A program made the position numbers and the translations under genes. 40,000 bases of DNA from Xiashengella succiniciproducens (GTDB lineage Bacteria > Bacteroidota > Bacteroidia > Bacteroidales > Marinilabiliaceae). Under the pieces are notes generated by a model. It searched no databases, was not told where the DNA came from, and worked only from the letters and a program-made list of their open reading frames with translations. The stretch covers positions 1,414,801-1,454,800 of the forward strand of contig NZ_CP098400.1 in the NCBI RefSeq assembly GCF_023674465.1, read 5' to 3'. This document shows positions 2,929 through 36,158 of this stretch, piece by piece. The stretch's first letter is position 1. The number at the start of each line of letters is the position of its first letter.

Positions 2929-2932
2929 AACT

Positions 2933-3582: not shown

Positions 3583-3611
3583 ATGTATTTCGAATATTTT
3601 AACCCACAAGT

Positions 3612-4064: not shown

Positions 4065-4135
4065 ATCTGGTTATAAAAGTAGACCCTATAAAACAATTAC
4101 CTAACACTTTAGATTTTGGAAAAAAATACCAACCA

Positions 4136-4270
4136 GGCGGCAACATCATGTATAAAATATTTGGGGGTTTAGTGGTTACTTGAAGCATTCTGCCCCGTAT
4201 TAGCTTTTGTAACGGCAGACAGTTGCGAAGCCCGCAAACCCCAAACATTTCATACATGTGCTCGTTGTGC
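4136..4270 (+). repeat. Integron attC site 4
   Basis: R'' GGCGGCAAC (4136-4144) matches the reverse complement of GTTACCGCC at 3059-3067 with one mismatch. R' GTTGTGC lies at 4264-4270. It belongs to the CAACATCATGTATAAAA... attC family together with attC11, 14, 15 and 22. Confidence 0.85.
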
Positions 4271-4793: not shown

Positions 4794-4927
4794 ACGCACA
4801 ACAAATGGTATAGTGCATGCGGGTTTCAGCGGTTTGCGAGGGTTTGTGGCTCGTAAAAAAAGTCGGAGTAAACTGATAGGAAATTGCCTCGTAATCCCGC
4901 ACGACACCATACCATCAACCGTTATGC
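4794..4927 (+). repeat. Integron attC site 5
   Basis: R'' ACGCACAAC (4794-4802) is the reverse complement of GTTGTGCGT at 4264-4272. R' GTTATGC lies at 4921-4927. Confidence 0.85.
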
Positions 4928-4948
4928 TGCATTTTAAAAACAACACAT

Positions 4949-6115: not shown

Positions 6116-6125
6116 AATAAAAAAC

Positions 6126-6258
6126 GCAGCATAACATCGCATATACCTAATGGCGGTTTTATTGCACTTTGCAAGGCTTTTCGCCCGCTCAAACTTCACC
6201 ACGGTTTGACAGTTGAATCGTCCGCAATCCGCCACTAGGCATATGCGTAACGTTACCG
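6126..6258 (+). repeat. Integron attC site 6
   Basis: R'' GCAGCATAAC (6126-6135) is the reverse complement of GTTATGCTGC at 4921-4930. The arms ATCGCATATACCTAATGGCGG and CCGCCACTAGGCATATGCGTAAC pair. R' GTTACCG lies at 6252-6258. Confidence 0.85.
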
Positions 6259-6337
6259 CCAAGTGTAAAAAGACCATCGACAGAATCAAAATAGAAAGTA
6301 AACCATTGTGATAGAACAAAAAAATAATAATTGAATT

Positions 6338-7105: not shown

Positions 7106-7237
7106 GGCGGTAACACGCGGTATAGTTAATTGCCGGTGTAGTGCGTATTCGAGCGGCACAGCTCGTATCAAAAGTAGTTGTAACTTGATAGGAAAGTGCT
7201 TCGAAATCGGCAACTAACCATACCGCCAACGTTAGCG
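7106..7237 (+). repeat. Integron attC site 7
   Basis: R'' GGCGGTAAC (7106-7114) is the reverse complement of GTTACCGCC at 6252-6260. The arms ACGCGGTATAGTTAATTGCCG and CGGCAACTAACCATACCGCCAAC pair. R' GTTAGCG lies at 7231-7237. Confidence 0.85.
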
Positions 7238-7269
7238 GCAATGGGCGCACTGCATATAACCAGGAACAT

Positions 7270-8433
7270 ATGAGAAAATATTTATACATAGCATTTTCGA
7301 TTTTGATAAACTGTTCAGTGTTTGGACAAGTTGATTCCCAAACAGATTCAGTATCATTTGATAAGATAACTTGTCGTTTTAAAGAAACTAAAGGTTGGAA
7401 CATTTTTTCAGGAGAACTTAAAGACTCGATTGATACAACATTTTTATATCAGACAAAAGACTTTAATGTTTCGATTAGTGAAAATCCGATTGCATTTAAA
7501 ACTTTTCATTCAGTAATTAAAAATCCATATTTTACAGATGATTTCGGCGATTATGATAACAATTATGTTAATTACCCAGTTTCATATTCTGTAATATATG
7601 ATAACAGATTACTGTCATTATTCCGTAATGGAAAATTTGTTTGTCATAGATTATCCAACTTTGAAAGAGACTTGGATTTTGAGACAAAACTAAATACTCG
7701 TAAATTCAAATATCACTGGATTATAAATGATAAGCTAGGAGCAATATCTGGAAATTCAATTTTCATCTGGAATGGTACTGATTGGATTAGTAATAAAACA
7801 GACTTTCCACTGAAGAGTCAGCCAAAACTATTTGAGGATAGTGATTTTGTTGTGTTTGGTGATTGCCATGGAGAATGGGGAGGAACTGTTTACTTCTTTG
7901 ATAAAAATAACGGAGAAACTTATTTTACTGAATCTACTTGTGCTAATTCTGTTCTAAAAAAAGGAGATAGTTATTTAGTTCTAGCACATTTAGGGCATAT
8001 GACTGGTTCTACAGAGATAAAGGAGGTAAAAGACCCTCGTAAATTAACTCAAGCAAAACAAGCGGAGATTAATAAGACAAAGAATGGACAAGCCTTAGGA
8101 TATACAGATTCATCAAAGGCGTATGAAACAATACTCGATTATTGGGGAATTCAATTATTTTCTACTTTCAGTTACAAGGATAGACAATTATATATGGTTC
8201 ATTTAAATGAAATGACTTTTCTTGCAGAGATTGTTGGAAATGACATTCAGATTGTAAATCCTCTTTTTGATAATGAGATTTATACTCATGACCCAGTGAC
8301 AAATAAGTATGAAAACTACACTTTAATGAATTTAGACCATTATGGTACAGCAAGAGATAAAGAAATATCAGTTATTATAATTGATGGTGAAAGATTAATA
8401 AAACTAGATTGGAATGAGAACCACAGCCGCTAA
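7270..8433 (+). CDS. Hypothetical secreted protein
   Basis: 387-aa ORF with a signal-peptide-like N-terminus (MRKYLYIAFSILINCSVFGQ). Its TAA stop (8431-8433) lies inside the R'' box of attC8. Confidence 0.6.
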   Translation: MRKYLYIAFSILINCSVFGQVDSQTDSVSFDKITCRFKETKGWNIFSGELKDSIDTTFLYQTKDFNVSISENPIAFKTFHSVIKNPYFTDDFGDYDNNYVNYPVSYSVIYDNRLLSLFRNGKFVCHRLSNFERDLDFETKLNTRKFKYHWIINDKLGAISGNSIFIWNGTDWISNKTDFPLKSQPKLFEDSDFVVFGDCHGEWGGTVYFFDKNNGETYFTESTCANSVLKKGDSYLVLAHLGHMTGSTEIKEVKDPRKLTQAKQAEINKTKNGQALGYTDSSKAYETILDYWGIQLFSTFSYKDRQLYMVHLNEMTFLAEIVGNDIQIVNPLFDNEIYTHDPVTNKYENYTLMNLDHYGTARDKEISVIIIDGERLIKLDWNENHSR

Positions 8434-8558
8434 CACACAATATAGCAAATTGGGGCTGAGTAGGTTACGTCAACTTTTTGTTTACAAATCGGCTTCATCA
8501 ACGGTGGATAAAGACGCGTTCCAAAATCCCCAACTTGCCATATTGTAAAACGTTAGCC
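8426..8558 (+). repeat. Integron attC site 8
   Basis: R'' GCCGCTAAC (8426-8434) is the reverse complement of GTTAGCGGC at 7231-7239. R' GTTAGCC lies at 8552-8558. Confidence 0.85.
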
Positions 8559-8574
8559 GCAATTCCCCCTATTC

Positions 8575-8806: not shown

Positions 8807-10165
8807 ATGGAGAATGATTCTATTTCGATGAAAATCATCAACCCAAAGGCTGCTGGTATTGATATTGGGAGTCGGTCACATTGGGTTGCCATTGGTCAGG
8901 AAGATAAAGATGTTCGAGAATTTGGAGTTTTTAATGAAGATCTTTATGATTTAGCCCAATGGTTAACTGAAAACCAAATCCGGACAATTGCCATGGAGAG
9001 TACAGGCACATACTGGCAAAACCTTTATGCAGTGCTCATGGCCCAGGGATTTGAAGTAATCCTCTGCAATGGAAAATTTACTAAAAACATCAAAGGAAAA
9101 AAGACCGACATCAAAGATTGTCAATGGATTCAAAGACTTCATTCCTTGGGTTTATTGAGCAGCAGTTTTTTACCAGATGTTCAAACCGAGCAACTTCGTA
9201 CCTATTGTAGACACAGGGCGAATTTACTTCACATGGTAGCATCAACCTCAAAGAAAATGCAAAAGTACCTTCGGCTTCTAAATTTAAGATTAGATGTTGT
9301 TGTAAAAGATATTTGCGGACTTACTGGTCTAAAAATCATCCGAAGCATTTGCCAAGGTGAAACAAATCCCCGCAAACTGGCAGAGCTTCGACATTTCAAC
9401 TGCAGACGTTCTGAAGATGAAATCGCCCGAGCTCTTCAATCCAATGGACGACAAGATTACCTGTTTGCCCTTAAACAAGAGCTTGAGACATACGACCATC
9501 TACAATTAAAGATCTCCCAATGCGACATCGAAATTGAACAGCTCCTGAATCAAATCATAGAAAATGATGACAATAAGAAGCAGCACTGTATAGATCCTAA
9601 ATCATATAAGCGCATCAACAAAAACACGCCTAAAAATATCGATTTAAACCTGAAGGCATATCAACTCCTTGAAGGAATCGATCTGCTTGCTATAGAAGGA
9701 ATGAGTTATGGCACTGTTTTAGCTCTTATCAGTGAAGTTGGACTGGAAGGTATTAAACGATTCCCTTCAGCCAAACATTTTGCCAGCTGGCTTAGATTGG
9801 CTCCAAACAACAAGATTAGCGGCGGAAAGGTGCTCTCAAGCAAAGTGCCAAAAGGCAGCAATCGATTGAAAATAGCATTGAGAAATGCAGCAAATGCCAT
9901 TGGTAATCTGAAGGACTCTACCCCATTGAGGGATTTCTTTCATCGGGTTAACTTCAGAAAAGGCAGAACTTCTGCCATCAGTGCTACTGCCCGGAAACTA
10001 GCAGTCATTATTTGGAATATGGTGGTCAATAACACCCAATACATCAACCCTGAAGGGTATCTCTTTCTTGACCAAAAAAGAAAGCTCGGATTAACCAAAA
10101 GAATCAAAAAACAAATAGATAAATTTGGACTAAACCCTGAAGATCTTGGATTTTCAATTACCTGA
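8807..10165 (+). CDS. IS110-family (DEDD/RuvC-like) transposase
   Basis: 452-aa ORF. The N-terminus (AAGIDIGSRSHWVAIG, AMESTGTYW) matches the DEDD_Tnp_IS110 pattern. The C-terminal domain (SWLRLAPNNKISGGK) is typical of the family. The true start may be the Met at 8828. Confidence 0.85.
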   Translation: MENDSISMKIINPKAAGIDIGSRSHWVAIGQEDKDVREFGVFNEDLYDLAQWLTENQIRTIAMESTGTYWQNLYAVLMAQGFEVILCNGKFTKNIKGKKTDIKDCQWIQRLHSLGLLSSSFLPDVQTEQLRTYCRHRANLLHMVASTSKKMQKYLRLLNLRLDVVVKDICGLTGLKIIRSICQGETNPRKLAELRHFNCRRSEDEIARALQSNGRQDYLFALKQELETYDHLQLKISQCDIEIEQLLNQIIENDDNKKQHCIDPKSYKRINKNTPKNIDLNLKAYQLLEGIDLLAIEGMSYGTVLALISEVGLEGIKRFPSAKHFASWLRLAPNNKISGGKVLSSKVPKGSNRLKIALRNAANAIGNLKDSTPLRDFFHRVNFRKGRTSAISATARKLAVIIWNMVVNNTQYINPEGYLFLDQKRKLGLTKRIKKQIDKFGLNPEDLGFSIT

Positions 10166-13514: not shown

Positions 13515-13596
13515 GTGGCATATATTAAAAAAATATCAAGAAGAATTTAGGATCACCAGTAAAAACCTGTGGAATTAAACTCTGTATCAAGCATTA

Positions 13597-14007
13597 TTGT
13601 ATTGTCTTTTCAACCTTGGCGTTGTAGCTTTAGTACCAACGAACAAGACCACTATGAATGCTTACATTGAATTAGCCAAGCTGATGCTCCCAGAGGAGAT
13701 CAGCAAATCGTTCAGTTTAGTGAAAGTCGAAGAGGAAAAGGTTGAGCAGGACAAACGTCTTCACCTCTATCTGGAAGAACTAAACATCCCTCCGGACCAT
13801 GTTGATGTGCTTAAGCCAAATGGTTTTTATCCTGAATCCTTAATGGGAGATTTTCCTATACGAGACAGGCAGGCAGTGCTTCACTTACGCCGACGGCGAT
13901 GGCTTGATGCTCGAGGCCAGAGCGTTTCACGAGATTGGAGCCTGATATGTAAGGGCACCCGCTACTCCAATGAGTTTGCGGCTTTTTTAAAAGAATTTGT
14001 TGGATAA
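13597..14007 (+). CDS. ISL3-family transposase, N-terminal ORF
   Basis: 136-aa ORF that overlaps the next ORF by 11 nt in a different frame. The same arrangement is present in both IS copies. Confidence 0.65.
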   Translation: MYCLFNLGVVALVPTNKTTMNAYIELAKLMLPEEISKSFSLVKVEEEKVEQDKRLHLYLEELNIPPDHVDVLKPNGFYPESLMGDFPIRDRQAVLHLRRRRWLDARGQSVSRDWSLICKGTRYSNEFAAFLKEFVG

Positions 14008-15055
14008 ACACCCCATAACAGGGCGATCTCTTGAGCGTTATTATCCTATACAGGGCGACCAATTTGAGCGGGCCTACAAAGAGCATTTAAGTGGTTTTTC
14101 TGAGTGGTCTGATGCTGAACATGCGCAATCATGGCTTCTATTTCCTGAGAATATGGGAGCCTCTCTCAGTATCGATGAAACATCACTTTCCAGAGGAGAG
14201 CTCTACACGATAATATCAAACAAGAGTGCTCGCGGGCGCAAAGGCACCATCGTTGCTATTGTTAAAGGAACGAAGATAAACGATGTTGTTAAAGTAGTAA
14301 AGACACTCCCGTTTGAAACGCGCCTGCTGGTTAAAGAGGTCACAATGGACTTTTCTGACAGCATGCATGCCATTGTAGAAAAGTGCTTTCCGGATGCCAT
14401 AATAACGCTGGATCGCTTTCATGTTCAGCAGTTATGTAATGAGGCTATGCAGGAGACCAGGCTGCAAATAAAGCGTGAGGCGCGCAAAATGGAAATTGAG
14501 AATCGAGAGCAGCACAAAATGAAGTTGCATCGGAGAATGGTCAGCAGAAAGAAAAATAAGGTTAGTAACCGTGGCAGGAAACCTAATCGCAAGAATGAAG
14601 CCTATAAACCCGAATACCTTGAAAATGGAGACACCTTATGTGAATTGGTTACACGCAGCAGATACCTTCTTATGACCTCTGCCGACAACTGGACCGAGAC
14701 TCAAAAGCTAAGAGCTGAGCTTCTATTTAAGTACTTTCCAAAACTGAGAACCGCCTATAGCCTGACACACTCCTTACGCATGATCTTTTCCAACAAGATG
14801 GCAACAAAGGAGTCGGCGGCAGAGGCACTAAAGAAGTGGTATAACAAAGTGACTGATTTTGAAAATGACGCATTCAATACGGTTTCAGCAACAATCTATC
14901 AAAGAGAAAAGGAGATCTTGAACTACTTTGTTAACCGGTCAACCAATGCATCAGCAGAATCCCTTAATGCGAAAATCAAACACTTTAGGACCCAACTTAG
15001 AGGAGTCATTGATGTTAACTTCTTTCTCTACAGGTTAACTCTAATTTATGCATGA
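13997..15055 (+). CDS. ISL3-family DDE transposase, catalytic ORF
   Basis: 352-aa ORF with SIDETSLSRGELYTII, VTMDFSDSM and ITLDRFHV, plus the C-terminal AESLNAKIKHFR segment typical of ISL3-type transposases. Confidence 0.75.
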   Translation: MLDKHPITGRSLERYYPIQGDQFERAYKEHLSGFSEWSDAEHAQSWLLFPENMGASLSIDETSLSRGELYTIISNKSARGRKGTIVAIVKGTKINDVVKVVKTLPFETRLLVKEVTMDFSDSMHAIVEKCFPDAIITLDRFHVQQLCNEAMQETRLQIKREARKMEIENREQHKMKLHRRMVSRKKNKVSNRGRKPNRKNEAYKPEYLENGDTLCELVTRSRYLLMTSADNWTETQKLRAELLFKYFPKLRTAYSLTHSLRMIFSNKMATKESAAEALKKWYNKVTDFENDAFNTVSATIYQREKEILNYFVNRSTNASAESLNAKIKHFRTQLRGVIDVNFFLYRLTLIYA

Positions 15056-15084
15056 GCTAAACACATGTTTTTGCGGGTGATCCA

Positions 15085-15817: not shown

Positions 15818-16102
15818 ATGGGAACATCAAAATTTGATATAGCTGACTATTTAGATAGTAACGAGATGATTGCTGAATATCTTAATACTGTTTTAGCAGA
15901 GGGAAACGAAGCCGATGTAATTGTAGCTATTGGACATATAGCAAAATCAATCGGCATGACCAAAATTGCTCAAGAAACTGGATTAAGTAGGACAAGTTTA
16001 TACAAAGCTTTATCGGAAGGTGCAAAACCTCAGTTTGAGACGATTATGAAAGTATTAAAAGCAATAGGCGGACAGATACAAATAAATCCCATGAATGCAT
16101 AA
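15818..16102 (+). CDS. Type II antitoxin, HigA-family addiction-module antidote protein (HTH)
   Basis: 94-aa ORF with the FDIADYL N-terminus and an HTH segment (IAQETGLSRTSLYKALS). Confidence 0.75.
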   Translation: MGTSKFDIADYLDSNEMIAEYLNTVLAEGNEADVIVAIGHIAKSIGMTKIAQETGLSRTSLYKALSEGAKPQFETIMKVLKAIGGQIQINPMNA

Positions 16103-16108
16103 AAAAAC

Positions 16109-16169
16109 GCACCATAATATATAGGAATATGAGCGGTCGGAACGACCCAGCGATTATTCTCGGTTGAAC
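16109..16169 (+). repeat. Integron attC site 10 (short, about 61 bp, atypical)
   Basis: GCACCATAAT (16109-16118) is the reverse complement of TTATGGTGC, which follows the crossover G at 15380, but it ends AAT rather than AAC. R' GTTGAAC lies at 16163-16169. That R' is supported by attC11, whose R'' AGTTCAAC is its reverse complement. The internal pairing is weak. Confidence 0.5.
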
Positions 16170-16404
16170 TACATCCCGCTAGGTCTGCAGCCTGCTTTTA
16201 TGGACTTTAAGTCGGTTTTTGATGTTTTTGGCAAGGGCACCCGTGGTACCGTCTTCCCGTTTTTAAGCATTTGAACTTAAGAAGTGACTGGTCGTAGTGG
16301 CTGAGAAGTTGAAAATCTGTTCCTTTTTGGCTGAAAACCTACCGTTAAGGCAATACGATGCCGAACCTCATGTCAATGAAGTTTTTAAGGGGGTGTTTTG
16401 TAGG

Positions 16405-17327
16405 TTACTGCAACTTCGCAAAAAGCAATGAGGGCAGATTTCCTGCGGGTGACCGTATCCTGGGTAAGGTTCTAATGACAATCAGACGACCCTCTTTGCA
16501 ATGCGGACATTTGGTTAGGTCAAATCCAGTCAGCCTTAAAATGCGCTCTGAGGCCGTTTCATCGTTTTGGTCAGCTGCCATCTGTTCAATGTCGGGCTTT
16601 TCATCGGGCACAAATTGTAAATCCAGATGAAGCTTTGTAGAGTGATGATAAATGCCGAATCGTCGAATACGCACATAACCATCGGGCATTACATGCAAAG
16701 AGAATCTACGCAGAAACTCTTCGCCGGTCAGTGATACCGGTTTCTTTTGTGCCCGGTCCCGGTAGTCTTTAGCTACGAAAGTTACGTGTATTGGATCAAC
16801 GTTCAAGATCCGCTGGTTGCTGATGGCAATGCGATGGGTGTATTGCCCCAGATACCTGATAACATGCTCGGCACCTGCCATAGAGGGCTCGCAATAGACC
16901 ACCCACTTTTTTTGATGGGCCTTCTCTAAGCAGACTTTAAAGCCATCCATTGCAGAAAGTTTTCGCAGTTCCCTTTTTATGCTGTCCAGAAATTTGCCTT
17001 TAAAGGCAGCACTCAACTGGTGCACCGGATACAGATAATTATCATATTTGCCGATATGGCGCCATTTCCCCGACAAGGAATAACCGGCTGCCGGAACAAT
17101 GCAGTGCAAATGCGGATGCAGAGAAAGGTTTTGCCCCCAGGTATGCAGCACCGCAACGGCTCCGGTTTCACAACCGTAATGTGTATAACCGAAGCTGTGC
17201 AGCACTGGAGGATGTTGTACAAAACCTTGATTTGTTTGGGGGATAGCTCACCGCTCCGCAACAAGGGTTTCACAAATTGGCGGACAATATGAGCCAATTC
17301 ATGCTTGCTTTTGCAGTGCTTTTCCAT
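16405..17327 (-). pseudogene. IS91-family (Y2/HUH-type) transposase remnant with an internal deletion or frameshift
   Basis: One ORF (17327-17013) gives the N-terminus ...SPKQIKVLYNILQCCTA. A second ORF in another frame gives the C-terminal part (AVLHTWGQNLSLHPHLHCIVPAAG...). The zinc-ribbon and first catalytic block expected between them are missing. Confidence 0.6.
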
Positions 17328-18213
17328 AAAGGGTGTCTAAAGGGCTGTGAGGGTTTATGTGCTGGCACTGAGCAACATGAAGATAAATCATCGTAGTAGA
17401 AATGTCGGCATGGCCCAATAAATCCCTTAAGGTTACGATGTTTAATCCCTGCTCCAATAAATGCGTTGCGTAGCTATGCCGTAAGGAATGAAGATTGACA
17501 CTTTTGGCAATAGAGGTCTTTTTAAGGTTCTCCCGCATTACCCAAGATAATCCTTTAACGCTGTAGCGACCGTCAGGCTCTTTGCCATTGAACAGCCAAA
17601 CATGCGGGTTCTCGGCTCTGAGATACTTCTCGAGTCCAATGGCCATAGTAGGGGACAAGGGGACTATTCGGTCTTTCTTGTATTTGCTCTGGCGAATGTG
17701 GATGACCATCCGCTCAAAGTCAATATCTGATATTTTAAGATTGATGACCTCTTGCCCTCGCAATCCGGCAGAATAAATGAGCGTAAGGATTATCCGGTGT
17801 TTAAGCAGTGCAGGTGCTGCAAACAGCATTTTCAGTTCCTGCTGGTTCAGGACAATCGGCAACTTGGTGTCCTGCTTTAATGAAGGCAGGGCAATGGCCT
17901 TTTTGTTCATGCCCAACAAACGGTAGTAATACCTAAGACCGTAAACCATGTGCTTGAAACTGCTGCGCGAAGGCGCCTTGGGATCACGTGCCAAAGCAAC
18001 CAGGTACTCATTGATCTCGTCTTCGCTAACCTGTTCGGGTAATTTTTCAAAATGGATGACAAACAGGGCAATGCGCCTGATGTAATTATTCAGGGTGCTG
18101 GCGCTTTGGCCACGAAGTACCACCTGATGCTCCAGCTTCACGGCCCTGGACTTGAATTCAGGGACAAGTACCATGGCACGCTCAACAATAGTTAAGCTTG
18201 TTTTCTTTCTCAT
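17299..18213 (-). CDS. Tyrosine recombinase (XerC/D-like), partner of the IS91-like gene; not an IntI
   Basis: 304-aa ORF with the catalytic pattern AGLRGQE, HSLRHSYATHLL and LLGHADISTTMIYLHV. It has no IntI-type extra segment between the KDR block and the HxxR block. Confidence 0.8.
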   Translation of the reverse strand: MRKKTSLTIVERAMVLVPEFKSRAVKLEHQVVLRGQSASTLNNYIRRIALFVIHFEKLPEQVSEDEINEYLVALARDPKAPSRSSFKHMVYGLRYYYRLLGMNKKAIALPSLKQDTKLPIVLNQQELKMLFAAPALLKHRIILTLIYSAGLRGQEVINLKISDIDFERMVIHIRQSKYKKDRIVPLSPTMAIGLEKYLRAENPHVWLFNGKEPDGRYSVKGLSWVMRENLKKTSIAKSVNLHSLRHSYATHLLEQGLNIVTLRDLLGHADISTTMIYLHVAQCQHINPHSPLDTLYGKALQKQA

Positions 18214-18307
18214 AACTGCATTATTTTAAAGTGAATAATACAGATATAACGGCTTGCGGCTAGAAAGATTTGTGTTATTTTTGAAAGGAGCTATTCCGTA
18301 GGGATTT

Positions 18308-18441
18308 AGTTCAACATCATGTATAAAACATTGGGGTTTAGGTGGTTGCATGATATATTCTGCCCCGCATCAGTTTTTGTAGCGGTTTGACAGGTTTGTG
18401 CTTCGAATCGCCAAACGACACCATACACGTAACCGTTAGCA
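18308..18441 (+). repeat. Integron attC site 11
   Basis: R'' AGTTCAAC (18308-18315) is the reverse complement of GTTGAACT at 16163-16170. R' GTTAGCA lies at 18435-18441. Member of the CAACATCATGTATAAAA family. Confidence 0.8.
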
Positions 18442-18454: not shown

Positions 18455-19126
18455 ATGACAGATAATTCTCTATCCTCAGATATAAGTGCGATCCAAATAA
18501 AGCTTCAGTACTTACATTACAAGTCCTTAAAAATAAATGAAGAAATTAACCGAATTAGATCCATAAAGTTTCCAAATCCTAAGTGTCCTGAATCTATTAC
18601 AGCAAAGGGAGAGTTTTCATTTTGTGCTATTGACATAATCTCTCTGTTTGAAGGTTATAATTCACTTGCAAATAATGTTTTAAATGACAAATTTATTGCA
18701 AGAAACTTGAGACCAGATCTAAAGCTCCAAATTGAAGAAATAAAAGATCTTACAAATAATTGGAAGCATGTAAGAAATAAAATTGGTGGGCACTTGGATA
18801 TCAAGATCATCAAATCCTTCTGCGATAGATATGCATACAGGGGTGTATTTATCACTGACTACCTTGAGGCAGATTTCAAAGGTGTTATTCTACTTCAAAT
18901 GATAGAATCAGCTATAAATAATACATTAAGCAAATCGCATTTGTTTGAAAAAGAGATCAATTAGATCAGTTTTGAAGGACTTGAAATCTTCTTGACCAAG
19001 ATCAATGAGGATTGGAAAAAGTGTTTTCAATTGTATTCTGCTCTTTTCTCATTTTTGTATGAGATTGGCAAGAATGAGAAAATGAATCAAATCGGAAGAA
19101 ATGAAGGCGGAATCATTAAATTTTAA
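18455..19126 (+). pseudogene. HEPN-like hypothetical gene (RNKIGGH motif) with an in-frame TAG at 18962-18964
   Basis: A 169-codon ORF ends at a TAG. The same frame stays open for 53 more codons (ISFEGLEIFLTKINEDWKK...GGIIKF) to a TAA at 19124-19126, 7 bp before attC12. VRNKIGGH fits the Rx4-6H HEPN motif. Confidence 0.5.
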
Positions 19127-19133: not shown

Positions 19134-19380
19134 GCTTGCTAACAGGTCGGTATATGTCATTGGCGCTCCGCACCGCGAGAACTTTCTGGCTAAAGAGGAC
19201 TGCTTAGTGGTAAGCGGAGCGGCCTGCCCCGGCTCCCGCCGGGGACTCCCTCCTGGTGTCACGGTTTTTGCCAACGCGAGAACAAAAAAAACAACATCAT
19301 AACCCTGCATCGCACCACGAGTGCAAAAACACGCGCCACCGCGACTCTGCGCCAACGCCACATACCGCCGAACGTTGTGC
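19134..19380 (+). repeat. Integron attC site 12 (long form, 247 bp, with a G+C-rich structured core)
   Basis: R'' GCTTGCTAAC (19134-19143) is the reverse complement of GTTAGCAAGC at 18435-18444. The outer arms AGGTCGGTATATGTCATTGGCG and CGCCAACGCCACATACCGCCGAAC pair. R' GTTGTGC lies at 19374-19380. Paralogous to attC21. Confidence 0.8.
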
Positions 19381-21783: not shown

Positions 21784-22024
21784 TTTAGTATTTGATTGTT
21801 CTTACTTTGTTGATTGATAAGTAAAAGGGTTTAATTTAAAACTTGAAATAATAATCATTGAGGAATAAACACCAGCATACAACATCGTGTATAAAACATT
21901 TGGCAGTCAGTGGTTTATCAAGCGTTTCAGCTCGTATCAAAAGTAGTTGTAACTTGATAGAAAATCGCTTCGAAATGGGATCACCAGTAAAAACCTGTGG
22001 AATTAAACTCTGTATCAAGCATTA

Positions 22025-22435
22025 TTGTATTGTCTTTTCAACCTTGGCGTTGTAGCTTTAGTACCAACGAACAAGACCACTATGAATGCTTACATTGAAT
22101 TAGCCAAGCTGATGCTCCCAGAGGAGATCAGCAAATCGTTCAGTTTAGTGAAAGTCGAAGAGGAAAAGGTTGAGCAGGACAAACGTCTTCACCTCTATCT
22201 GGAAGAACTAAACATCCCTCCGGACCATGTTGATGTGCTTAAGCCAAATGGTTTTTATCCTGAATCCTTAATGGGAGATTTTCCTATACGAGACAGGCAG
22301 GCAGTGCTTCACTTACGCCGACGGCGATGGCTTGATGCTCGAGGCCAGAGCGTTTCACGAGATTGGAGCCTGATATGTAAGGGCACCCGCTACTCCAATG
22401 AGTTTGCGGCTTTTTTAAAAGAATTTGTTGGATAA
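22025..22435 (+). CDS. ISL3-family transposase, N-terminal ORF (copy 2)
   Basis: Identical product to 13597-14007. Confidence 0.65.
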   Translation: MYCLFNLGVVALVPTNKTTMNAYIELAKLMLPEEISKSFSLVKVEEEKVEQDKRLHLYLEELNIPPDHVDVLKPNGFYPESLMGDFPIRDRQAVLHLRRRRWLDARGQSVSRDWSLICKGTRYSNEFAAFLKEFVG

Positions 22436-23483
22436 ACACCCCATAACAGGGCGATCTCTTGAGCGTTATTATCCTATACAGGGCGACCAATTTGAGCGGG
22501 CCTACAAAGAGCATTTAAGTGGTTTTTCTGAGTGGTCTGATGCTGAACATGCGCAATCATGGCTTCTATTTCCTGAGAATATGGGAGCCTCTCTCAGTAT
22601 CGATGAAACATCACTTTCCAGAGGAGAGCTCTACACGATAATATCAAACAAGAGTGCTCGCGGGCGCAAAGGCACCATCGTTGCTATTGTTAAAGGAACG
22701 AAGATAAACGATGTTGTTAAAGTAGTAAAGACACTCCCGTTTGAAACGCGCCTGCTGGTTAAAGAGGTCACAATGGACTTTTCTGACAGCATGCATGCCA
22801 TTGTAGAAAAGTGCTTTCCGGATGCCATAATAACGCTGGATCGCTTTCATGTTCAGCAGTTATGTAATGAGGCTATGCAGGAGACCAGGCTGCAAATAAA
22901 GCGTGAGGCGCGCAAAATGGAAATTGAGAATCGAGAGCAGCACAAAATGAAGTTGCATCGGAGAATGGTCAGCAGAAAGAAAAATAAGGTTAGTAACCGT
23001 GGCAGGAAACCTAATCGCAAGAATGAAGCCTATAAACCCGAATACCTTGAAAATGGAGACACCTTATGTGAATTGGTTACACGCAGCAGATACCTTCTTA
23101 TGACCTCTGCCGACAACTGGACCGAGACTCAAAAGCTAAGAGCTGAGCTTCTATTTAAGTACTTTCCAAAACTGAGAACCGCCTATAGCCTGACACACTC
23201 CTTACGCATGATCTTTTCCAACAAGATGGCAACAAAGGAGTCGGCGGCAGAGGCACTAAAGAAGTGGTATAACAAAGTGACTGATTTTGAAAATGACGCA
23301 TTCAATACGGTTTCAGCAACAATCTATCAAAGAGAAAAGGAGATCTTGAACTACTTTGTTAACCGGTCAACCAATGCATCAGCAGAATCCCTTAATGCGA
23401 AAATCAAACACTTTAGGACCCAACTTAGAGGAGTCATTGATGTTAACTTCTTTCTCTACAGGTTAACTCTAATTTATGCATGA
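22425..23483 (+). CDS. ISL3-family DDE transposase, catalytic ORF (copy 2)
   Basis: Identical product to 13997-15055. Confidence 0.75.
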   Translation: MLDKHPITGRSLERYYPIQGDQFERAYKEHLSGFSEWSDAEHAQSWLLFPENMGASLSIDETSLSRGELYTIISNKSARGRKGTIVAIVKGTKINDVVKVVKTLPFETRLLVKEVTMDFSDSMHAIVEKCFPDAIITLDRFHVQQLCNEAMQETRLQIKREARKMEIENREQHKMKLHRRMVSRKKNKVSNRGRKPNRKNEAYKPEYLENGDTLCELVTRSRYLLMTSADNWTETQKLRAELLFKYFPKLRTAYSLTHSLRMIFSNKMATKESAAEALKKWYNKVTDFENDAFNTVSATIYQREKEILNYFVNRSTNASAESLNAKIKHFRTQLRGVIDVNFFLYRLTLIYA

Positions 23484-23616
23484 GCTAAACACATGTTTTT
23501 GCGGGTGATCCTCGAAATGCCAAACGTTTCATACACGTAAACGTTGCCAACAAGTTAAAAAGAGACAATCCCTTGTTTCCTGAGAAAGAAACTTTTATCT
23601 TTGAATAAAAAGCAAA

Positions 23617-24288: not shown

Positions 24289-25020
24289 ACGAAGAAACAT
24301 AACCTGTTGGCAACATCATGTATAAAATATTGGGGGTTTATGTGTGTATAGGCACTCCACTCCCCGTAGCAAATTTATTAACGGCAGACAGTGAGGACGC
24401 CCGCAATCCCCAACGTTTTATAGTGTGCCGAGAAGCAGAACATCGGCAAAATATTGTTCTGCATGCTGTAGTTAAGATGGTGGAAACAGTTGTAAGTTGA
24501 ACCACCGGTGTCGTCTTACAGGAGAGGGCATCAAACCACCTAAAGGTGCTGTGGTAAAGAGCTATGGTGCTGAGCGTTTAGGAAAAGGCTATCCATGAGA
24601 TAGTGCAGGTAAGGATATAGGAGCTGAACGAGAGTGAACCCTTGATGAGGAGTCGAGAAGTTGTACACCCAGTCAAAAGCTACAGGGCTGAGCGTTAAGA
24701 AACAGTCCAGTGGACTGTTTTAGTGAAGAGCCAGGTTGTGGGGCTGCAAACGGAGTTATAAGTATAGCGGGAGCCTGAATTATTGGCTATACGGCTGGCG
24801 TCTTTCAGAGGGCAGGAACTATATTCGGGCTTAATTACGGAACTCGGGAACCTTCATGGTAATGCCAAGGGATGAGCACAATGGGAACAACCCAGAGGCT
24901 CGAAACCGAAGTACCATGTAGGGGCGGATTGCCCCGTAGTAGCAAAGAAGCGATTGTAATGAGAGCAGAGCGAAGGGGGCAAGTTATACCGGATCATAAC
25001 ATTTAACAACTCGCAAGAGG

Positions 25021-26271
25021 ATGACTTTATGGAATGAGACAAAATCGGTACCAGTAAGTAAGGACCAAGTATGGCTTGCTTATAAGAAAGTGCGCTCCAA
25101 AGCAGGGAGTGCAGGAATTGACCAAATTAGTATGGAAGAATACAATGCCAACCGGTCTGGTCACCTGTACAAACTGTGGAACCGGATGGCGTCAGGGAGT
25201 TATTTCCCGCCGCCGTTAAAAGAAGTGGAAATACCCAAGAAAGACGGCAAATTTCGCAAACTTGGTGTTCCTACTATCAGCGATCGCGTGGCACAAATGG
25301 TCGTGAAAGATTATTTGGAAGAGAGGTTCGAGAAACTTTTCAGTCCCCATTCTTATGGTTACCGCCCCGGAAAGAATGCTCATCAGGCATTGGCCGAGGT
25401 ACGGAAGAATGTCAGAATTTCGGACTGGGTAATTGACCTTGATATCAAAGGATTCTTTGACAACATAGACCATGCGAAGTTGATGTTGGCATTAAAGAAA
25501 CATGTAAGCGAAAGGTGGTGCCTAATGTACATCGAAAGGTGGCTTCAAACACCCGTGCAAACTAAAACCGGGGAACTGGTAATGAAGCAAGGAAAAGGAA
25601 CGCCACAAGGAGGTGTAATTAGTCCGTTATTAGCAAATCTGTTCTTACATTATGCCATGGATAAATGGCTGGAGCAAACCCACCCTAGAGTCAGTTATGT
25701 GCGATACGCCGATGACGCAATACTGCACTGCAAGAGTAAATCACAAGCTGATTACGTAATGCGTAATTTGAACAAACGGATGAAGCAATGTGGGTTGGAA
25801 CTGCACCCGGAAAAGACGAAGCTTGTTTATTGTAGAGACTACAGGCGACAGGGAGCGTTTGAGAACGTGAAGTTCGATTTTCTGAGCTATTCATTCCAAC
25901 CTCGCACCGCAAGGTCAAAGAAGACCAGGGAACTTTTCCTTGGCTATGACTGCGCCATCAGCACGAGTTCAAAGAAACGCATAGCAGAGAAGATGAGAGA
26001 GTTGAAGGTTGAGACCCTGACACATAACAGCATAGTAGGAGTGGCGCAATTTCTGGAGCCTTATATCCGGGGTTGGATCAACTACTATGGAAAGTTCAGA
26101 ATATGGGAAATGAACCCAATCTTTCAGCTATTACGGCGGAGGCTTGTGATGTGGGCACGGAAACGGTACAAGCGCTACAAAACGACTATCAACGGCACTT
26201 ATGCATGGTTGGAAAGAGTGAAAGAGCAATATCCGACACTGTTCTACCAATGGAGTCTGGGATTTTCGTAA
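25021..26271 (+). CDS. Group II intron reverse transcriptase/maturase (no endonuclease domain)
   Basis: 416-aa ORF with RT blocks (IPKKDGKFRKLGVPTISDRV, GTPQGGVISPLLANLFL, YVRYADDAILHC) and a maturase X region (RGWINYYGKF). The short C-terminus has no HNH domain. Confidence 0.9.
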   Translation: MTLWNETKSVPVSKDQVWLAYKKVRSKAGSAGIDQISMEEYNANRSGHLYKLWNRMASGSYFPPPLKEVEIPKKDGKFRKLGVPTISDRVAQMVVKDYLEERFEKLFSPHSYGYRPGKNAHQALAEVRKNVRISDWVIDLDIKGFFDNIDHAKLMLALKKHVSERWCLMYIERWLQTPVQTKTGELVMKQGKGTPQGGVISPLLANLFLHYAMDKWLEQTHPRVSYVRYADDAILHCKSKSQADYVMRNLNKRMKQCGLELHPEKTKLVYCRDYRRQGAFENVKFDFLSYSFQPRTARSKKTRELFLGYDCAISTSSKKRIAEKMRELKVETLTHNSIVGVAQFLEPYIRGWINYYGKFRIWEMNPIFQLLRRRLVMWARKRYKRYKTTINGTYAWLERVKEQYPTLFYQWSLGFS

Positions 26272-26296
26272 TGAAGTGCATCGATTTGTATAACAA

Positions 26297-26330
26297 GAGC
26301 CGGATGAGCTGAGAGGTTCAAGTCCGGTTC
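26297..26330 (+). ncRNA. Group II intron domain V (catalytic hairpin)
   Basis: GAGCCGGATGAGCTGAGAGGTTCAAGTCCGGTTC is 34 nt long. It has the AGC triad and a GAGCCGGA / TCCGGTTC helix with one G-U pair. Confidence 0.85.
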
Positions 26331-26419
26331 TGTGAGAGGCTTAGGAGGAAGTTCCCTTTGCCTACTCGACCCGCCACCGTTGTGTTGCATATTAAAAGAC
26401 AGATTGCTACAATGAAAAT

Positions 26420-30990: not shown

Positions 30991-31626
30991 ATGTGGATTG
31001 ATGACCAACAAGTCCTTGCAGCGAAATTGGACTATGTGAGTGGAATTGCTGTATTTGATGAGATACTTGATGGAAAGACGCTCAAGGAAATAGATGCAGT
31101 AATTCATCTTGAAAAATATCCGAAAGGACTTCTTTTCAAAATAGCGAGGGGTTTTGGTGGAATAATAACACATCCATTTCCAGTTGCGAAAAATGAAATC
31201 AAACAAGTCGTACTTGCTGAGTCAACTGAAAGTAGTGGAAAATTGACATTTGACTTGACTGATGGGAATAAAATTGAGTTCGATATTAAGAAAGGAAAAC
31301 TTTGGGAAGTTAAGGACTTTTTTAAAGAGATTAAACTCAATTACGAAATAGAGAAAACTAAGAAACCAGTTATACCAACAGAAAAGAAGCCTGTAAGCAC
31401 ACAAAAACATGGTGTTCCTACTTTGATTTCATTTTTTGTGCCAGGCGTAGGACAACTAATCAAAGGACATATAATGAAAGCTATTGGAATTTGGGTAATT
31501 GGCGGACTTGTTGGATTTTTCCTCTGGTGGACATTTATAGCACCATTCATTGTATGGGTTTGGAATGTATATGATGCCTATAATTCTAATGCGGACTGGG
31601 GCGCTGGTGATGCTCGGGCATCTTGA
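30991..31626 (+). CDS. Hypothetical membrane-anchored protein; the 3' end runs into a G+C-rich insertion
   Basis: 211-aa ORF with a soluble N-domain and two C-terminal TM helices (TM2-like). The last 12 or so codons (...NADWGAGDARAS) lie beyond the composition shift at about 31591. Confidence 0.6.
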   Translation: MWIDDQQVLAAKLDYVSGIAVFDEILDGKTLKEIDAVIHLEKYPKGLLFKIARGFGGIITHPFPVAKNEIKQVVLAESTESSGKLTFDLTDGNKIEFDIKKGKLWEVKDFFKEIKLNYEIEKTKKPVIPTEKKPVSTQKHGVPTLISFFVPGVGQLIKGHIMKAIGIWVIGGLVGFFLWWTFIAPFIVWVWNVYDAYNSNADWGAGDARAS

Positions 31627-34200
31627 TTGTGAGTGGCTTGACTTTTTTGTCGGGATGGGTTATATTGGGGCTTATTGCTTTAATAACCTTTACTCTGCCC
31701 TGCTGATGGCTCGTTTATTTGTCTTTCCTGTTTTGCATAAGGGGTGTCGTCGCCTCGCTTTGAAGCCGGATGCTTATTTGCCGGATTCTGATTTTAATGT
31801 TATTACGCGTGGTTTGCCTGGGCGTGCCTATAGTAAATCTTTGAGGTGTTGGCATGTGCCGTTTCGGGAGAATTACCGCCATTGGCTGAGTGAGGTGTAT
31901 GAACGGGCTGCTGATTTGGAACTTGTTTTTGGGGATGGGGGAAAGGTGGCTGAACGGGATGATAAACCGGAAAAAGCTATGGATGCAGATGTACATTCAC
32001 TTGTGGAAAGTCCAACTGAAATTAGGGTTGCGGATGATGTTTCCGTTGCTTCAGAGCTGCTTGCGAGGGTGCTGGTGGATAAGGTGAATAAGAGGTTTTA
32101 TGTTGAGCACAGTTATCATTCTGCTGTTTTTAACTCTTTGGCTCGTTTAAATGTAGGGACCTATGTGTCGACCGACCGTCGTTGGGTTTTTCCGGGCGAT
32201 AATGTGATTTATTTGCAGGTGCTGGATGTTTTGAAGGGGTTTGGCTTTAAACCACGGGTGCTTACGTTGGAGAAATCTGCTGAGCCAGCTGCTCTCCCGG
32301 CTGGTTTTGAGCTGCCAGTCAGGCGGTTTGATGAGGCGATGTTGTTGCGTCGTTTGAGCTTTCGAACGCAGGAAATTTACAAGAGTTGTTTTCTTCTTTT
32401 TTTGAAGGATCATCAGGGCAGGATTGTTGATGAGTTGACTTACAGTGAATTGTATGGCTATTTGAAGCGGCAGTCTGTTCTGCTGTCTTCAACGCAGCTT
32501 AAGCAAATGATTGCTGCGGTAAAGTTTTATTATGAGCGGACGCTGGGCAGGGACAAGATGTTTTTTCCGCTGGCGGAAAAAACGGAGGTGCGAAAATCTA
32601 CGCTCTTCCTTCCGTATGCCGAAATTCGCTCTTTGCTGGATGGAATTGCTTCGCCCGGCGATAGGATGTTGCTCTTCCTGGTGTATCATGCCAATCTGCC
32701 CTTAAACCAAATTTGTGCTTTGCCGAAGGATGCGGAGAACCTTTTTGAGGAGGACTGCCGTATGCCGGGGAATAATGAGTTGGCCTTGGCTTATTATGCC
32801 GATTTGGTTGCGGAGTTGAAACGGACTTATGACCTGGCGACTTTTTTGTTGGAGGACAAGGGGGTGCCTTATTCTGTGGAGTCGTTAAAGGGGAAGTTGT
32901 ACCGGATTTTGGGGCATTATCGCTTGGAGGAAATTTATCGGAAGCAATATGAGGTAATTTTGAAGCAGAGTAGCTTGAGCTCGAAGACGCAGGTGATGTA
33001 CCTGGGTGCTTTTATGCGGTTTTTGGATTATTACAATTATAAGCACCCGGCTTTTATTAAGGACGATGAGGTGCGTGATTACCTGTTGTTGCACCGGGGG
33101 AAGTCGAGTGCTCACCAGGACAACCTGGTGAGCAGTTTTAAGTTCTTTTTTGAACGCATCCATAATCATACGCTTTCGGACAAGCATGTGGTGCGTCCCC
33201 GAAAGGGTTTTTATCTGCCCGACTTTTTTTCTCTGTCGGAGATTTCGGCCATGCTTAACACGACCGACAATTTAAAGCATAAGCTGCTGATTGCCATCGG
33301 TTACACCGCTGGTTTGCGCCGTTCTGAAATACGTAATTTGCGCTTATGTGATGTGGATTTGAAGCGCAATTTGCTGTTTATTAAGGATTCGAAGGGTAAA
33401 CGCGACCGCTATACTTTGTTTTCGCAGCACTTGCATGAATGGCTCAAATCTTATTTGAATCAGGCAAAGCCCAAAGTTTTTCTTTTTGAGGGCCCTAGTC
33501 CCGGTACGCAATACAGTACCACCAGTATGGCGGTAATTTTAAAGAAGATGGCCAAGGCTGCCGGCATTAAACGAAAGGTGCATATGCATATGCTGCGACA
33601 TAGTTTTGCTACGCATTTATTGGAAGAAGGTCGCGATGTCAGGTACGTGCAGGAGCTGCTTGGACATAAAAGCATCAAAACCACGGAGCGTTATACGCAT
33701 GTAGTAAGTGATGCGCTGCTTAATGTAGCCAGTCCCTTCGACCGTATGGTTGCCCAAACAGGTTTTGCTGGTAAAAAGCCCCACAGCCCACCTTAATGCG
33801 CATAGCTTTTTTTGCCTTCTCCTTTGTAGGTTGCATTCGGTTTGCCACCTACCCGATGTTGTTCTTTCTGCTTCAATAGCCTGAAGGGAGTAGTTTGTGC
33901 TATGCAATTTTTCGCTTTACTGGTCGATTATTTGACTTTTTGTTGCGCTAATTGCTCCTATTATATGCCGATGTCTTGCCTTTGTGTGTTGTATTGTGCT
34001 GTTGTTTATTGATTTGAGTGTTTAGTAAGAGTCATTAATTTAATATTGCAAATGTTAATAATTTTTGCAATTATTGTATGGTGATTTACACCGACCTAAT
34101 TCCTTAACCTGGCCGCAATGTGACTGAGGAAGACGAAGTCGTGCCAAGATTCAGTGTTTTGAACTTGCAACTCGTTTGTTTTGCACTTTAAGCTCTCTTT
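31591..34200 (+). mobile_element. G+C-rich inserted island carrying a long tyrosine recombinase (boundaries approximate, right end uncertain)
   Basis: Composition shifts sharply at about 31590. The host cassette has lost its expected R'' box (GTGTGGTAAC is absent). The palindrome ATTGCAAA...TTTGCAAT lies at 34045-34071. Confidence 0.5.
31706..33796 (+). CDS. Long tyrosine recombinase/integrase (about 696 aa) with an N-terminal domain, two SAM-like core-binding segments and a catalytic domain
   Basis: The start is taken at the Met at 31706, because the 31550 start overlaps the previous gene. The N-terminus VFPVLHKGCRRLALKP...LRCWHVPF resembles Bacteroidota integrase N-domains. The catalytic domain has AGLRRSEIRNL, KGKRDR, HMLRHSFATHLL and LLGHKSIKTTERYTHV. 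Confidence 0.75.
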   Translation: MARLFVFPVLHKGCRRLALKPDAYLPDSDFNVITRGLPGRAYSKSLRCWHVPFRENYRHWLSEVYERAADLELVFGDGGKVAERDDKPEKAMDADVHSLVESPTEIRVADDVSVASELLARVLVDKVNKRFYVEHSYHSAVFNSLARLNVGTYVSTDRRWVFPGDNVIYLQVLDVLKGFGFKPRVLTLEKSAEPAALPAGFELPVRRFDEAMLLRRLSFRTQEIYKSCFLLFLKDHQGRIVDELTYSELYGYLKRQSVLLSSTQLKQMIAAVKFYYERTLGRDKMFFPLAEKTEVRKSTLFLPYAEIRSLLDGIASPGDRMLLFLVYHANLPLNQICALPKDAENLFEEDCRMPGNNELALAYYADLVAELKRTYDLATFLLEDKGVPYSVESLKGKLYRILGHYRLEEIYRKQYEVILKQSSLSSKTQVMYLGAFMRFLDYYNYKHPAFIKDDEVRDYLLLHRGKSSAHQDNLVSSFKFFFERIHNHTLSDKHVVRPRKGFYLPDFFSLSEISAMLNTTDNLKHKLLIAIGYTAGLRRSEIRNLRLCDVDLKRNLLFIKDSKGKRDRYTLFSQHLHEWLKSYLNQAKPKVFLFEGPSPGTQYSTTSMAVILKKMAKAAGIKRKVHMHMLRHSFATHLLEEGRDVRYVQELLGHKSIKTTERYTHVVSDALLNVASPFDRMVAQTGFAGKKPHSPP

Positions 34201-34289: not shown

Positions 34290-34333
34290 ACATAATACTC
34301 CTAAACGCAATAGCGTTTATTTGGGTGTTGTAC
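34290..34333 (+). repeat. Right-end remnant of attC site 19
   Basis: R' GTTGTAC (34327-34333) is supported by the R'' ACGGTACAAC of attC20, which matches it as a reverse complement at 9 of 10 positions. The left half with the expected R'' was not found. Confidence 0.5.
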
Positions 34334-34376
34334 CGCATGCAAAAACCGAAGTGCAATTAACTTGGATTATAGATAA

Positions 34377-34649: not shown

Positions 34650-34675
34650 AACCTTGACAATCAGAAAGAATAATA

Positions 34676-35161: not shown

Positions 35162-35175
35162 TATAATAATGCACG

Positions 35176-35317
35176 ACGGTACAACATGCTGTGATACGGC
35201 AGCCGGGGCTCCACAGCATATAGTGGGTTTCGTTCTCGCCCGTCAGTCGCGCTTGGCCTGAAATTTTCGTAACTGGCAGAAATGCCCCGGCCGACCGCAT
35301 ACAGCCGGGCGTTAGCA
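35176..35317 (+). repeat. Integron attC site 20 (G+C-rich, 142 bp)
   Basis: R'' ACGGTACAAC (35176-35185) pairs with GTTGTACCGC at 34327-34336 (9 of 10). The arms ATGCTGTGATACGGCAGCCGGGG and CCCCGGCCGACCGCATACAGCCGGGC pair. R' GTTAGCA lies at 35311-35317. Confidence 0.8.
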
Positions 35318-35325
35318 CACATATT

Positions 35326-35904
35326 ATGAAATTCGTCTTAACAATATGGTTATTAATCCTTACCCAATTTTGTGGAGCACAGAACGACTTCTACTCTAGA
35401 CTAAGTGGTGCTGCTCTAGAGTTAACAAAACAACAAGTGACGTATGACCCAAGATACTTTTCAATCCCCTACCCCAATGGTGATGTGCCAAGCAACAAAG
35501 GTGTTTGTACTGATGTAATTATCAGGGCATATAGAAAACTGGGCATAGACCTTCAAAAAGAGGTACATGAAGACATGAAGGTTAACTTTTCAGCCTATCC
35601 AAAGAATTGGGGGTTAACAAATACAGACACCAATATTGATCATAGAAGGGTGCCAAATCTTATGGTTTTCTTCTCAAGAAAAGGTATTAAGCTGCCCATT
35701 TCCCAAAAGCCAGAAGACTATCTTCCGGGTGAGATTGTATGCTGGGATCTTGGTGGTGGAATAACACACATCGGTTTCGTGGTAAATGTCAAAGACCTCA
35801 ACTCAGACAGGTATAAAATCGTTCATAATATTGGTGCAGGTCAGGTGGTTGAAGACTGCCTATTCAAATTTAAGATCATAGGTCACTATAGGTACAGTGG
35901 CTAG
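35326..35904 (+). CDS. DUF1287-family secreted protein
   Basis: 192-aa ORF with a signal peptide. It has VTYDPRYFSIPYPNGDVPSNKGVCTDVIIRAYR and NIDHRRVPNLMVFF. Confidence 0.7.
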   Translation: MKFVLTIWLLILTQFCGAQNDFYSRLSGAALELTKQQVTYDPRYFSIPYPNGDVPSNKGVCTDVIIRAYRKLGIDLQKEVHEDMKVNFSAYPKNWGLTNTDTNIDHRRVPNLMVFFSRKGIKLPISQKPEDYLPGEIVCWDLGGGITHIGFVVNVKDLNSDRYKIVHNIGAGQVVEDCLFKFKIIGHYRYSG

Positions 35905-35912
35905 AACAATAC

Positions 35913-36158
35913 GTGTGCTAACAGGTCGGTATATGTCATTGGCTTCTGTGCCGCGAGAATTTTCTGGTTTAAAAAGACTAGTATTGTGGCTGGCGGCACA
36001 GGCTGCCCCGGCTCTCGCCGGGGACCCCCGCTGGTGTCACGGTTTTTGCCAACGCGAGAATAAACAAAACAACATCATAACCCTGCATCGCACCACGAGT
36101 GCAAAAACACGCGCCACCGCGACTCTGCGCCAACGCCACATACCGCCGAACGTTGCCA
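35913..36158 (+). repeat. Integron attC site 21 (long form, 246 bp, paralog of attC12)
   Basis: R'' GTGTGCTAAC (35913-35922) is the reverse complement of GTTAGCACAC at 35311-35320. R' GTTGCCA lies at 36152-36158. The right-hand ~120 bp are almost identical to attC12. Confidence 0.8.

Follow-up and report, generated by a model that had tools for sequence, protein, structure and literature searches.

The 40,000-nt window analysed here, the whole stretch of Xiashengella succiniciproducens DNA under study, belongs to a single-contig genome of 3.1 Mb with about 33% G+C and is taken up by a long array of gene cassettes. Its attC-type sites are each preceded by an ORF, as the position of an attC in such an array requires, and they are imperfect palindromes that start with ..AAC and end with GTT... 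Searching the whole genome with a profile built from six ordinary local sites revealed 62 ordinary sites of ~128 nt, located mostly in two arrays on the + strand, termed here array A (genome positions 1414271-1492986, window included) and array B (2255518-2288800). The ordinary sites (e.g. 1238-1370, 2934-3067 and 6127-6260 of the window) share the conserved interior ..CCGCTCAAA.TTTTGTAACGGTTGACAGG....GCCCGCAAT.., and they too are near the published upper length limit. Besides these, the genome contains three giant sites, all at attC positions: attC12 and attC21 in the window, and a third copy in array B (genome 2257518-2257759) that equals attC21 exactly. The features are compiled in Table 1.

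Table 1. Giant sites, their parts, the associated cassettes and the candidate recombinase (window positions)
Feature	Position	Strand	Remarks
Gene of the cassette ending in attC12	18455..18964	+	169-aa ORF, no Pfam match
attC12, giant attC-type site	19137..19380	+ as written; predicted folding strand, bottom (-)	244 nt, first base of R'' to last base of R'
attC12 R'' box TGCTAAC (RYYYAAC type)	19137..19143	+	AAC invariant in 134/134 aligned sites
attC12 L'' side of outer (recombination) stem	19144..19164	+	Partner 19351-19373; conserved A·C here equals bottom-strand G·T; helices 1-2
attC12 arm C	19168..19222	+	9-bp helix 19168-19176 (CCGCACCGC) with 19214-19222 (GCGGAGCGG), one A-A mismatch; 37-nt apical part 19177-19213; helix 3
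attC12 arm B	19226..19246	+	Hairpin GCCCCGGC-TCCC-GCCGGGG(A)C, including CCCCGGC-TCCC-GCCGGGG at 19227-19244; helix 5
attC12 arm A	19250..19343	+	19250-19271 (..TGGTGTCACGGTTTTTGC) with 19323-19343 (GCAAAAACACGCGCCACCGCG); 51-nt apical part 19272-19322 with small inner helix; helices 6-10
attC12 L' side of outer stem and R' box	19351..19380	+	L' side 19351-19373; R' box GTTGTGC 19374-19380; inferred crossover G|TT at 19374|19375
Long IntI-like tyrosine recombinase	31550..33796	+	Candidate enzyme; co-oriented with cassettes; ~0.5 kb upstream of crossover GTT at 34327
Cassette with attC21	35312..36152	+	DUF1287 gene 35326-35904 plus giant site; duplicated in array B
attC21, giant attC-type site	35916..36158	+	243 nt; R'' 35916-35922; R' 36152-36158
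attC21 arms		+	Arm C 35946-35954 (CTGTGCCGC) with 35993-36001 (GCGGCACAG); arm B 36005-36025, hairpin 36006-36023; arm A 36029-36049 with 36101-36121

The first-pass annotation had described attC12 and attC21 as attC sites of double length that are richer in G+C than the array, nearly identical in their right part and diverged in their left part, with a 9-bp helix preserved by paired substitutions. The positions and sequences that it gave for helices and hairpins were all exact on re-reading. Both sites have the expected ends of the RYYYAAC...GTTRRRY type (TGCTAAC ... GTTGTGC in attC12, TGCTAAC ... GTTGCCA in attC21), and measured from R'' to R' they are indeed about twice as long as the ordinary local family. 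At 243-244 nt they exceed the 57-141 bp published for attC sites, among which branched variable terminal structures are confined to larger sites such as VCR (PMC5371416). In bins of 200 nt, the G+C content reaches neighbourhood maxima of 0.585 and 0.525 at the giant sites, compared with about 0.3-0.4 in the surroundings. Pairwise alignment of attC12 with attC21 revealed three differences in the right-hand ~150 nt and a far more diverged left part. The three paired differences between the two 9-bp helices were likewise present as claimed, two being changes from C-G to T-A and one from A-A to G-C. Concerning the latter, the change itself is real, but the A-A of attC12 is a singleton, and the family consensus GCGGTGCGG is fully paired. 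An ORF overlapping attC12 on the minus strand yielded no Pfam match, and the single-base length variation among the giant sites would argue against coding.

For the collection of homologous copies, 185,579 species genomes were scanned with the 18-mer CCGCGACTCTGCGCCAAC, which was taken from the right part of the giant site, so that conservation of this part is inflated in the sample. At least 120 stretches were matched, nearly all of them in Bacteroidales, Rikenellaceae or Bacteroidota assemblies. Among the matches listed, up to seven fall within one 8-kb locus at distances of 0.7-2 kb, which is the spacing of a cassette array. The 212 matches listed include 161 full sites with recognisable ends, 160 of which are distinct; the commonest length from AAC to GTT in this set is 235-236 nt (85 sites). 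In every real copy recovered among the matches listed the core lies between attC ends, and attC12 and attC21 are ordinary members of this giant-site family. Matches in Pseudomonas, Mycobacterium, Rubrivivax, Holophagales, Pyrinomonadaceae and Acetobacteraceae were set aside as six chance matches, all in G+C-rich genomes and without attC ends. Real giant sites were also observed on contigs, mostly short ones, that had been binned as Firmicutes, Obscuribacterales, Anaerolineaceae, Caldisericales, Flavobacterium, Methanofastidiosum or Verrucomicrobiota, reflecting either mis-binning or a spread beyond Bacteroidales. BLAST searches with the giant site returned no homologue among 60 relatives, and in 400 genomes of the order only chance or fragment matches of 20-33 nt.

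An alignment of 134 distinct sites of 226-246 nt, with attC12 and attC21 in rows 1 and 2, was used to follow the paired changes. Both AAC and GTT are invariant in all 134 sites. RNAalifold, when applied to the top strand, recovered arms C and B independently and with the same compensatory counts, but it missed the outer stem because of A·C positions; the structure was therefore taken from the minimum-energy fold of the bottom strand of attC21 and mapped onto the alignment. The resulting model comprises an outer stem made up of the R and L boxes, arm C with its 9-bp helix and apical part, arm B with the CCCCGGC hairpin, and arm A with an apical part of ~50 nt. Hence, the 9-bp helix noticed in the first place belongs to a four-helix fold, of which it forms one arm and the attC's own R/L-box stem forms the outermost helix. 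This outer stem, in which L'' pairs with L', appears in the bottom-strand minimum-energy folds of both attC12 and attC21.

The arm C helix occurs in seven versions in the 134 aligned sites, each of them perfectly complementary: CCGCACCGC/GCGGTGCGG in 73 sites, CTGCACCGC/GCGGTGCAG in 15, the attC21 version CTGTGCCGC/GCGGCACAG in 11, CCGTACCGC/GCGGTACGG in 10, CCGTGGCGC/GCGCCACGG in three, and CCGCGGCGC/GCGCCGCGG and TCGGCCAGC/GCTGGCCGG in one site each. Two or more versions stand side by side in 25 of 73 loci among the matches listed. Across the alignment, both sides changed at five of the nine pairs of arm C and at three of the eight pairs of arm B, with 98% of the positions paired in either arm. 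Within the outer stem, 75-87% of the pairs in helices 1-2 are Watson-Crick or G·T on the top strand, the rest being conserved A·C, and one pair shows covariation, being C-G in 73 sites and A-T in 40. Taking the whole fold, standard pairs make up 89.4%, as opposed to 29-42% when the partners are slid by one to three columns. Changes on both sides affect 16 pairs, compared with 7.5±1.1 after shuffling, and none of 500 shuffles reached the observed values; the corresponding 144 cells, compared with 38, overstate the number of independent events, since related copies share changes by descent. Instead of dissolving in more copies, the covariation thus became stronger with the collected homologues, in line with the initial proposal that the structure is under selection. 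Without selection for pairing, it is hard to explain why there are seven complementary versions and why they occur together in arrays. At the same time, the interior is conserved in sequence, loops included, far above what structure alone would need; therefore, either part of its function is unexplained or the family has spread recently.

Covariation alone cannot separate RNA from single-stranded DNA, and the attC sites are co-transcribed with their cassettes. Together with the unusually conserved interior, this lends some substance to the idea that the core is a structured RNA embedded in the attC, as raised in the first-pass annotation. Such an RNA could be a small RNA or a cis-regulatory element, with the covariation reflecting RNA folding. 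The strands, however, are not equivalent. At six column pairs of the alignment, A·C on the top strand, corresponding to G·T on the bottom strand, is conserved in 121-134 of the 134 sites; three of them are located in the recombination stem (8/272, 18/259 and 24/253) and three in arm A (141/231, 157/202 and 160/200). The helices of the fold contain few G·T pairs on the top strand. When both strands were folded with DNA energy parameters, the bottom strand was the more stable one in 134 of 134 giant sites, by 7.0 ± 2.1 kcal/mol on average; among the ordinary sites it was favoured in 51 of 57, by 2.8 kcal/mol. Thus, the bottom strand is the better folder because of the conserved bottom-strand G·T pairs. 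On the predicted folds, the asymmetry shared by stem and inner arms would fit a single DNA folded from the bottom strand, as known from classical attC recombination, and it would speak against a sense-strand RNA: the A·C mismatches weaken the sense-strand fold, so that the RNA would need to be antisense. Moreover, the covarying structure runs continuously into the R and L recombination boxes and stops at the crossover, and scanning the giant sites with the Rfam covariance models gave no match at gathering score and none at E <= 1. Nothing in these data requires an RNA, and we consider this explanation very unlikely. In the predicted outer stem, when read by hand, a 1x1 mismatch and single-base bulges are seen, and clear classical extrahelical bases are not evident.

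Several length variants of the family bear on how the giant site is built. In sites of 281-283 nt, arm C is replaced by a bigger module closed by CTGGTTTTTGC/GCAAAAACCAG; in sites of 300 nt, the same larger module is nested within an intact 9-bp arm C stem, and arm A contains additional hairpins in sites of 262, 270, 288 and 350 nt. Forms of 129-135 nt are internal deletions of the giant site and not empty targets. The variants of 262-350 nt, with hairpins added at arm tips or with the larger module, keep the frame and change the arms, which is growth as expected of folded nucleic acids, unlike transposon insertions, as far as can be told from the sequences.

The same observations bear on the MITE-like passenger that had been put forward as another reading, according to which the extra ~110 nt are a MITE or IS remnant inserted in an ordinary attC. 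Twice the usual length and a G+C content above that of the host DNA could be understood in this way, a group II intron as well as ISL3-family and IS110-family elements are found in or beside attC sites of the window, and both window copies contain a 9-bp direct repeat, CGCGAGAAY, around ~91 nt. Inspected as a target-site duplication flanking a 91-nt insert (CGCGAGAAC...CGCGAGAAC in attC12, CGCGAGAAT...CGCGAGAAT in attC21), the repeat did not hold up: its shared C/T is coincidental and the match is lost in other copies, and one strand of the covarying arm C helix lies outside the segment that the repeats bound. No IS or MITE ends were borne out either. Likewise, the real copies listed are all found between attC ends, the three copies in this genome sit at attC positions, and the short forms noted above are deletions. 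In addition, nhmmer aligned only the L'-R' end of the giant site with the ordinary profile (positions 103-128, the last 26 nt) and nothing else, indicating that the giant site did not simply derive from the local ordinary family, and hence is not an ordinary site plus an insert. An origin from a mobile element is thus extremely improbable.

A different origin, compatible with function as one site, would be that two attC sites became fused, with a decayed mini-cassette between them. The length, about twice 125 nt, is suggestive; the apex of arm A (..CACGGTTTTTGCC - 48 nt - TGCAAAAACACGCG..) resembles an L'-R' end followed by the R''-L'' start of the local type (usual start AACACGCG), and variants of 281-300 nt have a larger arm C module that is again closed by GGTTTTTGC/GCAAAAACC. 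However, the inner motifs GTTTTTG and CAAAAAC depart from the consensus sequences GTTRRRY and RYYYAAC, and the architecture of the family is uniform across many genomes. Examined by hand, the two halves do not fold as attC sites, L'' being unpaired with the putative inner L' and the inner L'' with the outer L'. Two fused attC sites were hence rejected as the present-day structure, and as a mere origin a fusion appears unlikely.

Cassette duplications indicate where the giant sites have recombined. The block 35309-36154, comprising the DUF1287 gene and attC21, is 100% identical to genome positions 2256914-2257759. The identity of this duplicated cassette extends from the GTT of the preceding attC, which is a different one, to the GTT of attC21, and is followed by immediate divergence. 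Correspondingly, the cassette 3' of attC12 (TTGTGCCGCATACTAG...) also follows three ordinary attC sites elsewhere, and the identity begins at GTT each time. From these sequence boundaries we infer crossover at G|TT both for the attC21 cassette and after attC12. Since cassette identity breaks at GTT, the giant sites were crossover partners that swapped partners with ordinary sites of ~128 nt. The coexistence and recombination of giant and ordinary sites in one array is what the window newly adds. It implies that a crossover can be defined without the arms; the near-invariant arm sequence still wants explanation. Taken together, the R/L-box outer stem, the bottom-strand bias and the cassette identity ending at GTT favour a branched single-stranded DNA fold of the attC among the three readings offered by the first-pass annotation.

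Many further cassettes of the window are duplicated at 94-100% identity within or between arrays A and B (e.g. 1-531, 1350-4267, 4900-6254, 7176-8564, 34327-35313 and 36139-37549). The cassette duplications point to recent shuffling despite the lack of a canonical IntI. Several other elements are associated with the array. A group II intron (24289-26419) is inserted in cassette orientation into an ordinary attC, a few bases ahead of the GTT, and comprises Rfam D1-D4 (24492-24610), an RT/maturase ORF (25021-26271) and a domain V region (26295-26370); this resembles the arrangement of group IIC-attC introns. An IS110-family transposase (DEDD_Tnp_IS110 and Transposase_20; 8807-10165) follows directly after an attC R', with a 99.9% copy at genome 985629-987021. 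Two identical ISL3-family copies are found at 13549-15083 and 21978-23512, the second splitting an attC, and more identical copies are present elsewhere in the genome. Finally, a minus-strand module between attC sites (16102-18325) encodes a Y2_Tnp (IS91-like) ORF and a 304-aa Xer/IntI-like recombinase. A second copy of this module lies at genome 689738-692209 and a partial one at 1494182-1497991.

The integron-integrase model TIGR02249 had no match over its cut-off anywhere in the genome, and a complete integron was thus not found. The long tyrosine recombinase listed in Table 1, which lies in a G+C-richer island, scored 184 bits with this model, compared with the cut-off of 265 bits. A diverged paralogue is encoded at genome 2252833-2254257, directly upstream of array B; the pair is not matched by megablast, and both proteins have ~700-750 aa. 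The copy in the window lies in the middle of array A, the paralogue at the head of array B, and array A may combine an orphan array with a second platform. For the C-terminal 275 aa, the best solved structure, with the C-terminal tail included, is VchIntIA (PDB 2a3v; E 4e-32), which outranks XerA, XerC and XerD. The two proteins align in two pieces, with 19 residues opposite the 61 of IntI (residues 186-246), indicating that the IntI-specific insertion is absent. This insertion is the domain thought necessary for attC recognition, reading the extrahelical bases. In nine of the at least 120 loci, the first giant site is preceded at 1-3 kb by a co-oriented gene for a recombinase with 36-44% identity, and in seven of these nine the protein shares a conserved N-terminal domain of ~75 aa. 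This co-oriented IntI-like recombinase without the IntI insertion is the candidate that would act on the giant sites. An AlphaFold model of the conserved N-terminal domain (pLDDT 88) had no significant match among PDB folds (best E 0.12) and none to arm-binding domains. The weak top matches included the HARP domain of SMARCAL1 and an XPB chain. SMARCAL1 and XPB bind forked DNA, and the resemblance of the modelled domain to them may serve as a lead only.

On this evidence, we are largely confident that attC12 and attC21 are functional members of a large family of giant attC-type sites of ~243 nt, in which the bottom strand is predicted to fold into a four-way structure with arms kept paired by selection. 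When single-stranded, the bottom strand would adopt the four-way fold, which on the folding models presumably also forms in vivo. Its outer stem would be made of R''/R' and L''/L', where the recombinase would cut at G|TT, and the three inner arms would close off what would otherwise be a variable terminal structure of ~190 nt: arm C at its base by the 9-bp helix, arm B by the CCCCGGC hairpin, and arm A by the helix that GGTTTTTGC/GCAAAAACC close. Selection for paired arms would keep the long interior compact and allow the ends of the site to meet, and the G·T wobbles confined to the bottom strand would bias folding to this strand. The near-invariant arm sequences may double as a protein-binding platform. 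Going further, one could envisage a Bacteroidales sister system of the integron, in which the co-oriented IntI-like recombinase, devoid of the insertion that reads extrahelical bases, acts on an attC in the form of a four-way junction; the near-invariant GGTTTTTGC/GCAAAAACC helices and the CCCCGGC hairpin would then be arm-type sites for its N-terminal domain and replace the classical recognition of strand and site. This extension is tentative, and we regard it as conceivable albeit rather doubtful.

The attC is a textbook example of a recombination site that is read as folded single-stranded DNA, and its interior is thought to be free to vary. Integron finders have a default attC size limit of about 200 bp. 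No description of the giant attC family was found in the literature searched, where a search on Bacteroidales together with attC retrieved none among the matches listed, and the family is apparently undescribed. A census of complete genomes from 2022 reports Bacteroidetes with only In0 elements and a single complete integron, that of Salinibacter (10.1101/2022.02.28.482270). Our results suggest that in Bacteroidales, a dominant anaerobic and gut-associated clade, large cassette arrays may escape current integron finders. They further raise the questions of the upper size and branching of a folded-DNA substrate and of integron-type recombination without the IntI insertion.

Among known systems, the giant sites are reminiscent of the Vibrio cholerae repeats (VCR, ~125 nt) of sedentary chromosomal integrons. 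Both have RYYYAAC and GTTRRRY ends and an imperfect-palindrome stem, follow each cassette gene in long arrays, recombine at G|TT and are homogeneous within the family; both have a predicted preference for folding of the bottom strand, and a branched variable terminal structure is known from larger sites (PMC5371416). In contrast, the giant sites, at 243-247 nt, lie about 100 nt beyond the published attC range of 57-141 bp, or at about twice its upper end. Unlike VCR, they contain three defined and covarying inner arms and no clear extrahelical bases in the predicted stem, and they are near-invariant across many genomes, including those of many uncultured Bacteroidales, whereas the homogeneity of VCR is found within one species. 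They also differ in belonging to the Bacteroidales, a clade with almost no integrons in the 2022 census, and in having a candidate partner recombinase without the IntI insertion. The candidate recombinase is similar to IntI in that VchIntIA (2a3v) is its best structure match and in that its gene adjoins cassette arrays; it deviates by lacking the insertion, by scoring below the TIGR02249 cut-off, by being co-oriented with the cassettes, where intI is divergent, and by its added N-terminal extension. A large conserved recombination site, together with a recombinase bearing an additional N-terminal domain, is likewise reminiscent of the attP of lambda Int-type systems and would fit recognition of accessory 'arm' sites. 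However, attP works in the double-stranded state and with the help of host proteins that bend DNA, whereas the extra sequence of the giant sites consists of covarying hairpins that are presumably read as folded single-stranded DNA.
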